Source: Candidatus Saccharimonadota bacterium (lineage in GTDB: Bacteria; Patescibacteriota; Saccharimonadia; Saccharimonadales; Saccharimonadaceae). Taken from it: 64,000 nucleotides of DNA. A program made the translations under genes and the position numbers. How positions within the stretch are numbered: the stretch's first letter is position 1; each line of letters starts with the position of its first letter. The notes under the pieces are model-generated. The model was given only the letters and a program-made list of their open reading frames with translations, had not been told where the DNA came from and did no database searches. Shown here one piece after another: positions 2,882 to 57,341 of the stretch. The stretch is taken from the NCBI GenBank assembly GCA_026395405.1, contig JAPLYU010000001.1, positions 250,865-314,864 of the forward strand, in the 5' to 3' direction.

Positions 2882-3736
2882 ATGAGCGAAGACGTAAAAG
2901 AAGACACGAAAAAGTATTACGATACAACTCAGATTTCGTACAATCTGCTGTGGATGAACAAAAAAAATCTGGCAATGCATTACGGGTTTTGGGGTAAAGG
3001 TATAAAAACACTTCACGAAGCATTGTTAAATCAAAACAAAGAAACAGCCGAAGCGCTAGAAATTAAAAAAGACGATAGAGTGCTTGATGCAGGGTGCGGT
3101 GTAGGCGGTTCTGCTATTTGGGTAGCGGAAAATTACGGTGCAAAGGTGACCGGGATTACTATTGTTGAAAAACAGATAAAACAGGCTACTAAAAATGCAA
3201 AAAAAAGGGACGTGGACCACCTTGTCGATTTCAAGTTAATGGACTATTGCAACACAGATTTCCCAAATGATTCATTTGATAAAATTTACGCTATGGAAAG
3301 TATGTGTTATGCAAAAAGTAAGGCAGTTTTCGTAAAAGAAATGTACAGAATATTAAAACCAGGCGGCTGCTTGACAATATCAGACGCCTTTCTGGATGAC
3401 AAAACCATTCAAAAATCAGACGAGTTAATGCTGAATGATTGGATGGTTGGCTGGGCTGTGCCGAACGTATCAAAAATTGAAAATTTTCACGATGATTTAT
3501 GCCGGGCTGGGTTTAAGGGGATAAATGATAAAAATGTTAATGACCAGATTATTCCCTCTGCAAAGCGTATAAACAAGATTGGGCGAGTGTTCTATCCATT
3601 TGATTGGACCTGCAATATGCTCGGAATTGTCTCGAACACTACATTTAAAAGCACAATAGCAACTGTTGTTCAACTTCATTTGTTTTCTGAAATGATTATG
3701 CAGTATCATTTAATTAAAGCTAGAAAACCGGAGTAA
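2882..3736 (+). CDS. class I SAM-dependent methyltransferase (type 11, sterol/tocopherol/prenyl C-methyltransferase-like)
   Basis: SAM motif I VLDAGCGVGGSAIW plus post-I and motif II/III (DKIYAMES, LKPGG). I chose the ATG at 2882 (MSEDVKE), just after the upstream stop, instead of the overlapping 2837 start in the ORF track. Confidence 0.8.
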   Translation: MSEDVKEDTKKYYDTTQISYNLLWMNKKNLAMHYGFWGKGIKTLHEALLNQNKETAEALEIKKDDRVLDAGCGVGGSAIWVAENYGAKVTGITIVEKQIKQATKNAKKRDVDHLVDFKLMDYCNTDFPNDSFDKIYAMESMCYAKSKAVFVKEMYRILKPGGCLTISDAFLDDKTIQKSDELMLNDWMVGWAVPNVSKIENFHDDLCRAGFKGINDKNVNDQIIPSAKRINKIGRVFYPFDWTCNMLGIVSNTTFKSTIATVVQLHLFSEMIMQYHLIKARKPE

Positions 3737-10009: not shown

Positions 10010-10084
10010 GGTCTCATCGTCTAACGGTTAGGACACCAGGTTTTCATCCTGGCAACCCGGGTTCGATTCCCGGTGAGATCACCA
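10010..10084 (+). tRNA. tRNA-Glu (anticodon UUC), CCA encoded
   Basis: Hand-folded cloverleaf. Acceptor GGTCTCA/TGAGATC (one G-T pair). Anticodon stem ccagg/cctgg with loop ttTTCat. T arm CCGGG-TTCGATT-CCCGG. Discriminator A plus CCA. Confidence 0.9.
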
Positions 10085-10122
10085 AAGTAAAATACCCATC
10101 CATGCGATGGGTATTTTACTTT
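10084..10122 (+). terminator. 17-bp perfect hairpin immediately after tRNA-Glu
   Basis: aaagtaaaatacccatc / gatgggtattttacttt with loop catgc. Confidence 0.55.
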
Positions 10123-10131
10123 GGTATTTCT

Positions 10132-10304
10132 TCGAAATTGAAACCGGGTTGCCCAACCCGGGTGAGAACTGCCAGTCGGCAGTTCGCAAGGCCGGAAGCC
10201 GGATGACGAACGTCACCGACTGAGGCGGGGTCGCGGAATTTTCTGAAAGAAAATATCTGTGACCGATTCCTACTTATAACATCTAGGCGTTGGCCCGGTG
10301 AGAT
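10132..10304 (+). repeat. tRNA-linked conserved structured element, copy A, ending in an interrupted duplicate of the tRNA-Glu 3' end
   Basis: Shares with 57128-57296 this order: P1 hairpin, GTGAGAA, CTGCC-loop-GGCAG, TTCGCAAGG, variable hairpins, GCGGGGTCGCGGAA, GTGACCGA. It then has cgattcc (10264-10270), about 24 nt, and cccggtgagat (10294-10304), which copy the tRNA-Glu T-loop-to-acceptor segment. Confidence 0.6.
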
Positions 10305-10316
10305 TTTCTGGTTTTC

Positions 10317-10664
10317 TTAGTGTGTCAACAACCAAATTAAAGCTTCACAGTCGACAATCTCGTTCTGGGCAGCGTCACGTGTTGCCTGATCATCTGAATG
10401 GTCGACCACGTACTGGTATTGTTTTTCAGCAGTTTCTAGCATTTGTATCGCTTGTTTGGGTTTGGTCTGCATCTCGTCAATACCTTTTTGCTTCAGTTTA
10501 TCTGCTGCGGGTTTATCAGATACAGCAACCGTTTGACTGTTATTCGATATTGTGACAAATCGTGCAATTGAGACCACGCTTATCAACGCAATCAAGAATA
10601 GCGCCCCTAAGAGGATTGCATAAATTAGCTTCTTATTATTTTCTATTTTTTTCTTTTTTACCAT
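10317..10664 (-). CDS. small N-terminally anchored protein, paralog 1
   Basis: Lys-rich N-terminus and one TM helix. C-terminal motif ATRDAAQNEIVDCEALIWLL is shared with the downstream paralog. Confidence 0.55.
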   Translation of the reverse strand: MVKKKKIENNKKLIYAILLGALFLIALISVVSIARFVTISNNSQTVAVSDKPAADKLKQKGIDEMQTKPKQAIQMLETAEKQYQYVVDHSDDQATRDAAQNEIVDCEALIWLLTH

Positions 10665-35050: not shown

Positions 35051-35197
35051 GGTGACAGCACATTTGTGGTTTAGTCTACTGGTGCAGTTTATTTTTATAA
35101 CTGCGGGTGGGTAACACGAATCATAAATGAGCCTACCAATAAATGTCGTACGGGCGCAACAATCTAGAACTAATATTATTTAATATAAAGGTCGAAG

Positions 35198-36463
35198 GTG
35201 CCCCGTTCTTGCGAGAAGATAAGACAAAGTAGGGTAGACGCCACTGTAGCAATGCAGTTCGGCGGGAGATTGAAAATTCGTAACCCGATCAAATTGAGAT
35301 TACCTCAAAAATCTGTTAACGCCAATAAACAGCAAACCCAGGCAAAAACTCGTCGTAGGACGAAGAGCTTGCTGAAACCATCCGTACTTGCTGTCTATGT
35401 TGGTATTTTTGTTGTTATTATTGCTTTTGTTTTTATCGGTTATCATGAACCGAAAGATACTTCAACGGTGGCAAACGCCACCACTGTTACGTCTCCGACT
35501 AGTCAGATTGACCAAACCTCGGTTGATAATGTTGTTGCTACCAATGTTGCGGCAAGCGTTGCTAGTGCGGCTAATTTGCCTATCGCTACGTCTGTTTCCA
35601 ATATGGCAGTATCAGCTCGGGCTAAAAGCCAATTCTTGCAGTCAGACAGTCAGGGCCAGGGAACAACTAAACCGCAACTTGTTGGTTCGGACACGTCAAC
35701 TAAACGTGATGTCATCAGTTATACGGTTAAAGCTGGCGATACGGTCGGCGCAATTGCTGCGCAATTTGGCATAACAAGTCAAACTATCAAATGGGCGAAC
35801 AATTTAACGTCAGATACGCCAACGGTTGGTTCACAACTGCGAATACTCCCTGTTGACGGTGTTCTTTATTCTGTTAAATCGGGCGATACGATTGATTCAA
35901 TCGCTACGAAATATGCGGTCGACAAAGCGCGCTTGATTTTGTATAACGACCTTGACATGAGTGGTCTGCAACCTAACACCAGTATTATTTTGCCAAGTGC
36001 GGTACTACCTGGAAACGAGCGTCCCGGATATGTTGCACCAGTAATTGCGACTGCGAATAATGACTACAACGTATTTTACGGTGTTTCTGGAACTGGTTTT
36101 GGCGGATCAACCTGGAGGATTGGCGTAGGAACTCCTGACAACGGACTTTATGCTCACGGCAACTGTACACTTTACGCCTACAACCGCAGGAAAGCCCTTG
36201 GCTTGCCTGTTGGCGATCACTGGGGAAATGCCGGTACGTGGGCACCAATGGCTGCATCGGAAGGCTATGTTGTTAATCACTCCCCCGGTGTCGGAGCAAT
36301 TATGGCTGACTACGGCCATGTTGCAATCGTTGAATCCTTGTTGCCAAACGGGGATATCAGTATCAGCGAGATGAACGCATATGTTTCTGGTGGCGGATAT
36401 AATATCGTTTCAGGACGTATAGTTATCGCCGGAAACACTGGCCAATACTGGTACATTCACTAA
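35198..36463 (+). CDS. secreted peptidoglycan hydrolase: TM anchor, 2x LysM, C-terminal CHAP domain
   Basis: LysM repeats (YTVKAGDTVGAIAAQFGI..., YSVKSGDTIDSIATKYAV...). CHAP Cys/His region GNCTLYAYNRR...GHVAIVE. The start is uncertain: GTG at 35198 or ATG at 35252. Confidence 0.8.
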   Translation: MPRSCEKIRQSRVDATVAMQFGGRLKIRNPIKLRLPQKSVNANKQQTQAKTRRRTKSLLKPSVLAVYVGIFVVIIAFVFIGYHEPKDTSTVANATTVTSPTSQIDQTSVDNVVATNVAASVASAANLPIATSVSNMAVSARAKSQFLQSDSQGQGTTKPQLVGSDTSTKRDVISYTVKAGDTVGAIAAQFGITSQTIKWANNLTSDTPTVGSQLRILPVDGVLYSVKSGDTIDSIATKYAVDKARLILYNDLDMSGLQPNTSIILPSAVLPGNERPGYVAPVIATANNDYNVFYGVSGTGFGGSTWRIGVGTPDNGLYAHGNCTLYAYNRRKALGLPVGDHWGNAGTWAPMAASEGYVVNHSPGVGAIMADYGHVAIVESLLPNGDISISEMNAYVSGGGYNIVSGRIVIAGNTGQYWYIH

Positions 36464-56994: not shown

Positions 56995-57071
56995 GGGCGC
57001 TTAGCTCAGTTGGCTAGAGCATCTCGTTTACACCGAGAGGGTCGGGGGTTCGAGCCCCTCAGCGCCCACCA
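56995..57071 (+). tRNA. tRNA-Val (anticodon UAC), CCA encoded
   Basis: Acceptor GGGCGCT/AGCGCCC. D loop agctcagttggctagagc. Anticodon loop ttTACac. T arm cgggg-gttcgag-cccct region. Discriminator A plus CCA. Confidence 0.9.
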
Positions 57072-57077
57072 AATAAA

Positions 57078-57106
57078 GAAACCAATCCTTGTGATTGGAT
57101 TTTTTA
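57078..57106 (+). terminator. intrinsic terminator after tRNA-Val
   Basis: ccaatc / gattgg stem (extendable) with loop cttgt, followed by a T6 run. Confidence 0.6.
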
Positions 57107-57127
57107 TTTGGTACGCCCCGAATGGAC

Positions 57128-57296
57128 TCGAAACCCCGACGCCAAAGGTTGGGGGTGAGAACTGCCCAGAATGGCAGTTCGCAAGGCGACTTTCCGATGC
57201 AAACTATGTTTGCAATCGTGAAATCGCGGGGTCGCGGAACGTGACCGAGCCCCCGCCTGTCTGTTCGACGGAACGGGCAGGCCTCAGCGCCCACCA
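57128..57296 (+). repeat. tRNA-linked conserved structured element, copy B, ending in an interrupted duplicate of the tRNA-Val 3' end
   Basis: Same module order as 10132-10304. It ends in cgagcccc, a 28-nt G-U hairpin, and cctcagcgcccacca (57282-57296), which copies tRNA-Val 57057-57071. Confidence 0.6.
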
Positions 57297-57341
57297 AGTA
57301 CGTTATTTATCTGAACGATTTATTAGTGTTAGAATTGTAGT

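Follow-up and report, generated by a model that had tools for sequence, protein, structure and literature searches.

The window analysed here is a 64-kb stretch (64,000 nt) from the genome of a Candidatus Saccharimonadota bacterium, positions 250,865 to 314,864 of contig JAPLYU010000001.1 (assembly GCA_026395405.1), and our subject is a pair of related sequences within it, copies A and B, each of which lies beside a tRNA gene. ARAGORN identifies three tRNA genes in the window, and two of them, tRNA-Glu and tRNA-Val, have a look-alike stretch on the 3' side of the gene. In both cases a terminator hairpin comes next, followed by a common order of modules. A first-pass annotation, made from the letters of the window alone, had described these two copies and their module order; the sequence is as it described, and the coordinates that it gave for the hairpin called P1 are exact. 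The features at the two sites are as follows.

10010-10084, + strand: intact tRNA-Glu(ttc), the host gene of copy A (ARAGORN; Rfam tRNA, 63.1 bits)
10082-10124, + strand: terminator palindrome of copy A (CCAAAGTAAAATACCCATC / GATGGGTATTTTACTTTGG), a 20-pair terminator-like hairpin that starts in the CCA end
10122-10153, + strand: decayed antisense copy of the tRNA-Glu 3' half (local alignment, z = 8.0 versus shuffles)
10144-10161, + strand: P1 hairpin of copy A, the second turn, CCGGGTT/AACCCGG (10144-10150 / 10155-10161; sequence comparison)
10162-10263, + strand: core of copy A (covariance model R1, 45.4 bits, E = 1.7e-08)
10264-10304, + strand: displaced sense copy of the tRNA-Glu 3' part (sequence comparison)
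56995-57071, + strand: intact tRNA-Val(tac), the host gene of copy B (ARAGORN; Rfam tRNA)
57069-57111, + strand: terminator palindrome of copy B, a terminator-like hairpin that starts in the CCA end
57109-57140, + strand: decayed antisense copy of the tRNA-Val 3' half (local alignment, z = 7.0 versus shuffles)
57134-57154, + strand: P1 hairpin of copy B, CCCCGAC/GTTGGGG (57134-57140 / 57148-57154), where the antisense arm turns into the sense copy of the T-stem
57155-57245, + strand: core of copy B, the canonical long-hairpin P3 variant (R1, 98.5 bits, E = 1.3e-21)
57246-57297, + strand: displaced sense copy of the tRNA-Val 3' part (sequence comparison)

The interval originally annotated as a single element therefore mixes a remnant of antisense tRNA, the P1 hairpin, a core, and a displaced and interrupted tRNA 3' fragment. 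In copy A the terminator palindrome forms the first turn of a zigzag, in which the sequence of the tRNA is retraced in antisense and then again in sense. The antisense arm, TGGTATTTCTTCGAAATTGAAACCGGGTTGCC compared with the reverse complement TGGTGATCTCACCGGGAATCGAACCCGGGTTGCC, begins with TGG (the reverse complement of CCA) and contains no core; its end supplies the 5' strand of P1, and the 3' strand of P1 is the sense variable loop and T-stem 5' strand (CAACCCGG). The core follows at once, its first nucleotide, G1, being the equivalent of tRNA G53, and consists of G1, P2, AG, P3 in a two-hairpin variant, GGG, and P5 with an additional hairpin in its loop. The displaced fragment is made up of CGATTCC (10264-10270), a 23-nt extra insert (10271-10293), and CCCGGTGAGAT (10294-10304). 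Copy B is built in the same order: its antisense arm is TGGTACGCCCCGAATGGACTCGAAACCCCGAC, compared with the reverse complement TGGTGGGCGCTGAGGGGCTCGAACCCCCGAC, and its displaced fragment is CGAGCCCC, a 28-nt hairpin insert (57254-57281), and then CCTCAGCGCCCACCAA. In copies A and B alike, CC stands on either side of the short insert in the displaced fragment. Within the 64 kb the conserved blocks GGCAGTTCGCAAGG and GCGGGGTCGCGGAA have two occurrences each and no more, at sites A and B. Both regions fold well beyond shuffled sequence (z = -6.65 each), and the minimum-free-energy fold of copy B includes an outer helix that pairs the antisense arm with the core flanks.

This anatomy changes what can be read from the pairings first noticed in the window. 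Compensatory changes in P1 had been offered as evidence of selection, and that argument fails: P1 is the T-stem 5' strand and variable loop of the tRNA together with its inverted copy. It differs between A and B because the Glu and Val sequences differ, and it pairs by construction, so its five "compensatory" pairs are not independent evidence of selection. A proposed pairing of the conserved GGGGTCG with a segment specific to each tRNA is likewise unneeded; GGGGTCG(CG) forms the 5' strand of P5, where covariation supports its pairing with CGTGAC. The element does lie after the tRNA terminator, as had been claimed, but it is not a free-standing gene there, the core being an insertion in the T-loop of a second, partial tRNA copy.

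The core itself belongs to a large family. Genomes, one per species, were scanned with an exact pattern, which returned 75 loci, of which 73 were real; the related loci are nearly all from Saccharibacteria assemblies. L023 (Gracilibacteria) and L043 (Limnobacter) are chance pattern matches that hold no core. A covariance model, R1, was built from 51 distinct cores, the kind of search for further copies that the first-pass annotation had called for, and it identified 94 cores in the 73 Saccharibacteria genome loci. On the window R1 finds the two known cores only; on viral contigs it finds none, and five pattern matches in viral contigs are not cores. Metagenomes were scanned with a pattern covering only the 5' third of the core, which gave at least 120 loci, and R1, run on the first 100 of these, identified 129 further cores.

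Cores are 85 to 108 nt long, span (G)TGAGAA...CGTGAC, and have the order G1, hairpin P2, AG, P3, GGG, hairpin P5. P2 is UGAGAAC UGCC ... GGCA GUUCGCA, P3 is a long and variable hairpin domain, and P5 is GUCGCG GAA CGUGAC, with an additional loop hairpin in some cores, copy A among them. From a MAFFT alignment of the 51 cores RNAalifold derived 29 pairs, and double changes are seen at 16 of these. The 129 independent metagenome cores, in an alignment fitted to the R1 model with which RNAalifold on a MAFFT alignment agrees, have 95.3% of cells paired, against 77.9% in column shuffles and 26 to 49% when partners are slid, and changes on both sides are seen in 27 of the 29 base pairs, P5 included. 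The covariation is located in P2, P3, and P5, and it bears out the original suggestion of a conserved structured element under selection for its fold. P5 holds an almost invariant G-U pair, which points to the sense strand as the strand that folds.

No named class of noncoding RNA (ncRNA) accommodates the core, as had been anticipated, at either the Rfam gathering threshold or E <= 10. At the gathering threshold the window gives tRNA and lysM-TM7 only, and positions 10085-10330 searched at E <= 10 return only sub-threshold matches, to the terminator hairpin or low-scoring. Searches of 11 related loci gave no family for the core; across all searches only tRNAs, lysM-TM7, and RNase P RNA were found. 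Among the Rfam 15 classes compared were tmRNA, SRP RNA, Y RNA, T-box, hammerhead, twister, hatchet, pistol, HDV, and hairpin ribozymes, and group I and group II introns, to none of which the core belongs, and no sequence model of a self-cleaving ribozyme matches it. The element is not described in the full-text literature that we searched. The core is an undescribed, folded, noncoding module that falls in no named ncRNA class. The lysM-TM7 RNA of the window (RF03005, 89.9 bits) lies at 35131-35268, upstream of an open reading frame (ORF) at 35198-36463, and bears out that the window comes from Saccharibacteria.

The association of cores with tRNA genes is strict in orientation and in position. 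Where a tRNA lies within 130 nt, 165 of 167 cores are on its own strand, which upholds the tie to tRNA genes that two copies had suggested. G1 is a G in 236 of 237 cores and equals a G of the tRNA. Mapped sites fall in the T-loop after G53 (64 cores), in the D-stem 3' strand or position 26 (28 cores), in the anticodon loop (4 cores), and in the D-loop (3 cores). In the loop, the core takes the place of about 2 nt that directly follow a G of the tRNA; thus GG|TT|CAAG becomes GG-TGAGAA...CGTGAC-CAAG, and the sites GAAGG|AG|CACGC in tRNA-Ser and GACG|CG|CTAGC in tRNA-Leu are replaced in the same manner. The host of the core is a partial decoy copy and not the working gene, an intact copy of the same tRNA lying 40 to 100 nt away, and in nearly every host copy the other tRNA half is missing. 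The tRNA species with cores number more than 15, and some cores lie on the 5' side of the gene. The expectation that copies always follow tRNA genes holds as to the tRNA link but not as to the side, since there are upstream units too, and a few cores have a non-tRNA host. In two such loci (L064, 1560-1850; L008, 1600-1846) the core sits in non-tRNA sequence that is partly repeated just 3' of it, with ATGTTAGG... before and after the core, the same layout of a broken copy and an intact copy. The host in L064 adjoins uvrA, and neither host has an Rfam match; the layout suggests that the host may be another small structured RNA gene.

These positions recall those of the noncanonical archaeal tRNA introns (25/26, 53/54, 56/57; PMC4090602), and the core could in principle be a tRNA-gene intron, self-splicing or protein-spliced, with the intact neighbours as ordinary paralogues. 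The structured fold and a twintron-like nesting of cores would suit an intron, as would locus L017, where the anticodon loop of a tRNA-Pro-like sequence of full length holds a core and the 8 kb contain no intact copy. Excision of the core would not restore the tRNA, because about 2 nt of it are replaced, and the usual host copy lacks one half of the tRNA. At 85 to 108 nt the core matches neither group I nor group II models, and its two ends lie in different hairpins, P2 and P5, so no bulge-helix-bulge can form: the 5' end is at the foot of P2, the 3' end is in P5, and the ends are unpaired with each other. We consider an intron very improbable.

Locus L017 merits a separate description. The tRNA-Pro-like sequence (2960-3160) has matching acceptor strands and carries, in addition to the core in its anticodon loop, a 26-nt hairpin in its T-loop. 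ARAGORN finds no intact tRNA in the 8-kb locus, the sole case that resembles an interrupted gene without an intact neighbour. The contig (JAYVTZ010000005.1, 150 kb) is filed under Burkholderiaceae, and the 8-kb stretch, at 43.8% G+C, carries a Saccharibacteria core; the contig is probably mis-binned. The same locus encodes a class A RNase P RNA (341-871, 237 bits, 531 nt) with 209 nt against the model's 46, an expansion of about 160 nt that is none of the modules described here.

The surroundings of the core follow one plan, the zigzag seen at A and B. In downstream units, A and B among them, the intact tRNA is followed by a terminator palindrome that starts from the CCA end, by the tRNA 3' half in antisense, by a tight turn, and then by sense positions ~43 to 53, the core, and sense positions 56 to 76 with CCA, often with a second terminator. 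The terminators at 10082-10124 and 57069-57111, like those of many other loci, are long A-tract/T-tract palindromes whose stem begins in the encoded CCA (CCAAAG...CTTTGG), so that the tRNA 3' end is itself part of the terminator hairpin. The antisense arm starts with TGG and runs back to about position 39 to 47. An antisense 3' half was detected after the terminator in 40 units, with a mean z of 5.9; where no core was detected downstream of a tRNA, z has a median of 0.5. Twelve of these tRNAs stand out, and ten of the twelve were read, each of which has a different, non-core insert in its second sense copy.

The antisense arm is a copy of an uninterrupted T-loop, with 88 to 97% match opposite T54 and T55, positions that are partly lost from the sense arm. 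It is best preserved beside the core and pairs with both core flanks, so that the core stands out as a three-hairpin bulge on a long helix. Opposite G53 the base has changed in 53% of 76 units, compared with 2 to 18% at most neighbouring positions and 23% opposite G52. Upstream units are the mirror image: a duplicated promoter and positions 1 to 25, the core, positions 28 to 36, a turn within the anticodon loop, the 5' half in decayed antisense form and lacking a core, and finally the intact gene. The clearest are in L009 (29 nt, z = 9.1), L016, L052, and L035. A unit measures 200 to 250 bp, and the direct repeats of the tRNA 3' part are 180 to 230 bp apart. The antisense arms of A and B are only ~70% matched and their 3' fragments are split by small inserts; we infer that these two units are old and decayed, and that the inserts in the 3' fragments came later.

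Two other readings of parts of this layout were considered and rejected. Apparent expansions of anticodon loops are not functional anticodon changes; the tRNA-Ser sequence CACGCcTGG-A-CCAAGCGTG is a palindrome turn, an explanation that the Gly examples fit only approximately. The motif TTGAACC is not a promoter; it reads as the T-loop in reverse complement, at a distance from the tRNA that does not suit a promoter.

A direct repeat of the tRNA 3' end on the 3' side of the gene, with a boundary in the T-loop, is also what many tRNA-integrating elements leave behind, and the units might on that account be scars of integrase islands or prophages, attL/attR remnants with conserved arms that persisted after the island was lost. 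The direct repeat is indeed present, but the same ~90-nt core is found at more than 15 tRNA species and on the 5' side of genes as well, the unit includes an inverted arm, and the core has RNA-type covariation. No integrase is encoded in the window flanks or among 711 ORFs of the 73 loci, and there is no similarity to phages or plasmids. The idea that the two copies are arms of one known integrative element family, which had been named at the outset as a finding that would overturn the first description, is likewise at odds with the lack of any integrase, mobile gene, or phage or plasmid match in these searches. The scar reading is largely refuted, and we give it next to no credence.

The core is not the only insert found in this position. 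A second module of ~70 to 80 nt, "type 2," which is unrelated to the core and has no Rfam match, occupies the T-loop in the same kind of decoy of a tRNA 3' half, flanked by TTCG and ATATCC. It reads GGTTCG-GYGYAGTG, a hairpin with loop GTTTAC and a covarying stem, GGAGG, and GCCGAT, with other sequence between these parts. There are 32 matches in the loci and none in the window; examples are L049 5049-5129, L075 574-653, L068 304-383, L063 6890-6972, and L054 2009-2086, in addition to 27 further matches. A third kind is a short GC-rich hairpin of 25 to 30 nt in the decoy T-loop, seen in the T-loops of L055, L067, and L017. The window inserts at 10271-10293 (23 nt) and 57254-57281 (28 nt) may be of this kind, and such short hairpins, 23 to 30 nt overall, may be either a third type of insert or remnants of deleted cores. 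Several unrelated inserts thus share the same architecture, and cores nested in other cores show no duplication. These two observations suggest that something other than the core makes the zigzag, and that it marks the sole type of product able to survive at an essential single-copy gene.

Several observations bear on whether the core moves. Cores are nested within cores at GGG|GT|CGCG, the foot of P5 (L006, L088, L096, L147, and L178), as simple insertions without duplication at a site that resembles the T-loop GGGTTCG. Arrays of units of declining quality stand beside one tRNA in L070, L038, and L022, and one pseudo-tRNA-Leu with two cores is present in L026 and L062. Often the core most similar to a given core, with 95 to 98% identity, lies at another tRNA and in another species-level genome. 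The cores of L072 (at tRNA-Glu) and L030 (at tRNA-His) have an identical 41-nt P3, and that of L008, in its non-tRNA host, is one base off; P3 is widely divergent among other cores. For the same tRNA type a unit is present in some species and absent in others.

A carrier was sought in the same loci. Clustering of the 711 ORFs from the 73 loci (~600 kb of flanks) gave no common neighbouring protein family; the families that recur are housekeeping only (pilin-like, ABC transporter, LemA, RarA, RecG, and FolD). Pfam searches of nine ORFs around A and B identified no mobile-element domain and no integrase, and blastn showed no phage or plasmid similarity. Genes for TnpB, IscB, IS110-type, or other nucleases or recombinases were absent from these flanks. 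A core split by an ORF would leave an orphan 3' core half, and none occurs in the genome loci. The metagenome cores without a canonical 3' half, among those read, are mostly P5 variants, P5 hairpin insertions, or nested cores; in L111 and L151 the core runs into unrelated sequence, and no ORF lies inside a core in any of those read.

One way to account for such a gene-less distribution is that an unlinked, RNA-guided enzyme, a recombinase or a nuclease, takes its guide RNA from the core, in the style of a bridge RNA or omega RNA, the core serving as protein scaffold and the flanking sense and antisense tRNA segments as guides. The core does offer a structured scaffold with invariant junction nucleotides and target-matching flanks of both polarities; its insertion is site-specific and includes self-targeting of the T-loop-like GGGGTCG, and the scaffold stays constant while specificity follows the tRNA. 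Yet the ~600 kb of flanks contain none of the candidate genes, and membership among the IS110 bridge RNAs or the IS200/IS605-IS607 omega RNAs is contradicted by the lack of any such ORF family near the 73 loci, although an unlinked enzyme may exist. The supposed guides are moreover decaying 30- to 40-nt copies of whole tRNA halves rather than short maintained guides, and the nested insertions have no guide-like flanks. We regard a guide RNA as quite unlikely.

Taken together, the fold, the insertion sites, the zigzag, the nesting, the arrays, and the mosaic distribution of near-identical cores are most readily explained if A and B are units of a Saccharibacteria-wide family whose core is a protein-less, nonautonomous mobile module, aimed at tRNA loops and able to persist only where a rearrangement has left one gene intact, a reading to which we assign a probability of roughly 55%. 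The core would be mobile now, or would have been so recently, and would be moved by an unlinked enzyme or by RNA chemistry of its own.

A route to the zigzag can be proposed. The core would insert strand-specifically 3' of a G in an exposed loop, its moving form being RNA or single-strand DNA. A simple insertion into a single-copy tRNA gene would be lethal, and only rearranged products with an intact gene would persist. The sense arm has a core and the antisense arm has none, which is the state expected of a duplex with the insertion in one strand only. If such a duplex were copied round a hairpin turn ~10 nt from the core, the product would be an antisense segment without a core followed by a sense segment with one, and a second turn, at the terminator palindrome (or, on the 5' side, at the leader), would join this product to the intact copy. 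Fold-back DNA synthesis or recombination of this kind would preserve one intact gene, and the long palindrome would then decay except where the core is held. Snap-back of a chimeric RNA by a reverse transcriptase was set aside as unlikely; it predicts a core in both arms, and the antisense arm has none.

Several points weigh against a mobile module. The neighbouring ORFs of the 73 loci include neither an autonomous copy of the element nor a candidate enzyme. No young unit with perfect arms has been seen: metagenomes scanned with an exact pattern for a core plus a flawless Lys antisense arm returned nothing, and the best arms still have 20% mismatches. A comparison of empty and filled sites between L062 and L025/L026 rests on a 19-nt match only, is not syntenic downstream, and does not establish an orthologous pair. 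Units of the downstream type, A and B among them, stand behind a terminator, and no promoter of their own is predicted. Cores and the antisense arm adjacent to the core are well preserved while the rest of the unit has decayed; together with the substitution opposite G53, this preservation looks like selection in place, and possibly a host function. The fold-back route, finally, is pieced together from end products.

Such selection is what the main rival explanation would predict, namely that the core is a host cis-acting RNA of tRNA transcription units, a leader or trailer kept by selection in Saccharibacteria. Variants of this idea make it a processing stem that yields a small RNA, a decoy that holds an antisense segment for the tRNA 3' half, or a sensor of tRNA maturation; the duplications would then be the route by which such elements arise and not a sign of current mobility. 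Cores remain intact in old units (that of B scores 98.5 bits despite decayed arms), and the position-specific substitution opposite G53 accompanies a well-conserved arm beside the core. Some sites are filled in numerous species, as is the case for the D-arm unit upstream of tRNA-Gly(GCC), shared by 11 or more, and upstream-type units would be cotranscribed with the intact tRNA from the duplicated tRNA promoter. A host RNA does not readily explain cores nested in other cores, arrays of decaying units, near-identical cores at unrelated tRNAs in different species, or the occupation of the same place by three unrelated types of insert. Many tRNAs have no unit at all, A and B are promoterless behind their terminators, and we can name no function that requires a broken copy of the adjacent tRNA. 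We judge a host RNA unlikely, though it deserves serious consideration.

A bolder form of the mobile-module reading is offered tentatively. The core may be a ~90-nt structured RNA (or single-strand DNA) module able to write itself into loops that tRNAs and other small RNA genes leave exposed. It might do so through chemistry of its own or with the help of an unlinked enzyme. At essential genes it would become fixed through fold-back copying, which regenerates the gene and leaves behind a decoy embedded in a hairpin. It would then represent a new class of bacterial mobile elements without genes of their own, a parasite of tRNA genes that recalls viroids or retrozymes and lives in ultra-small episymbiotic bacteria. 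If this were true, there would be a kind of mobile element that has no protein gene, is aimed at the most conserved RNA genes of the cell, and never destroys them. The unexplained "intron transposition" among archaeal tRNAs would also gain a bacterial parallel, one whose nested copies, arrays, and zigzags constrain the mechanism. An activity with G|NN|Y loop specificity, if one lies behind the element, could have practical use.

Beside many tRNA genes of Saccharibacteria stand half-tRNA decoys and antisense segments of tRNA, which are relevant to tRNA annotation, to studies of tRNA expression, and to assembly, where contigs break at the repeats. The neighbours of A and B were recovered on short contigs only, all of which end at repeats. 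Three public short-read contigs (L081-L083), whose proteins are identical to those of the window, end within ~140 to 190 nt of tRNA units; the repeats at tRNA units appear to break assemblies.

Among known systems, the bacterial group I introns of tRNA anticodon loops, and twintrons, resemble the core in being sense-strand structured RNAs in a tRNA loop, and in nesting. The core is far too small to be one of them and has no match to the catalytic core, and its exons would be noncontiguous and its host copies nonfunctional; where a group I intron has a P3-P7 core and a guanosine site in ~200 nt or more, it has three hairpins in 85 to 108 nt. With group II introns it shares only its ends (GUGAG...AC), and it has no domain V-like hairpin and no Rfam match in its 90 nt. 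MITEs (miniature inverted-repeat transposable elements), REPINs, and the PATEs of IS200/IS605 are likewise multicopy, noncoding, hairpin-rich, and gene-less, and are presumably moved in trans. Unlike these, the core has no terminal inverted repeats, since its ends TGAGAA and CGTGAC are not inverted copies of each other; its junctions replace about 2 nt with no target-site duplication, its orientation and target are strict, and in place of simple palindromes it has a conserved three-hairpin junction with RNA-type covariation.

The folded single-strand attachment site of CTX-type phages offers a different likeness, in that target-like sequence adjoins the target in inverted and direct orientation after integration. 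The mobile form of these phages imitates the duplex target with a hairpin; it uses the host XerCD at dif and involves the whole phage genome, whereas neither a single-stranded circle nor Xer sites are indicated by the present data. Tyrosine-integrase islands and pNOB8-type plasmids are comparable in their target, which runs from the T-loop to the 3' end, in leaving the gene intact, and in producing a displaced partial direct repeat, and integrating elements can scatter tRNA fragments (PMC3293823). The unit differs from them in its size of 200 to 250 bp, in having no integrase and no cargo, in its inverted target copy and covarying RNA core, in the many tRNA identities that it occupies, and in its mirror-image 5' units.

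The closest analogues are the transposing tRNA introns of archaea. In the Thermoproteales, similar inserts occur in unrelated tRNAs at noncanonical positions, spread by a mechanism that is unknown (PMC4090602), and like the core they are short, noncoding, and placed at such tRNA positions as 25/26, 53/54, and 56/57. They are true introns, removed by EndA at a bulge-helix-bulge, and the gene they interrupt is a working gene. The Saccharibacteria core has a bacterial host, can form no bulge-helix-bulge, and replaces about 2 nt; it is found only in truncated decoys, each tied to an intact gene by an antisense arm. The bacterial host, the decoy-plus-antisense layout, and this core are absent from both the archaeal introns and the integrating elements.

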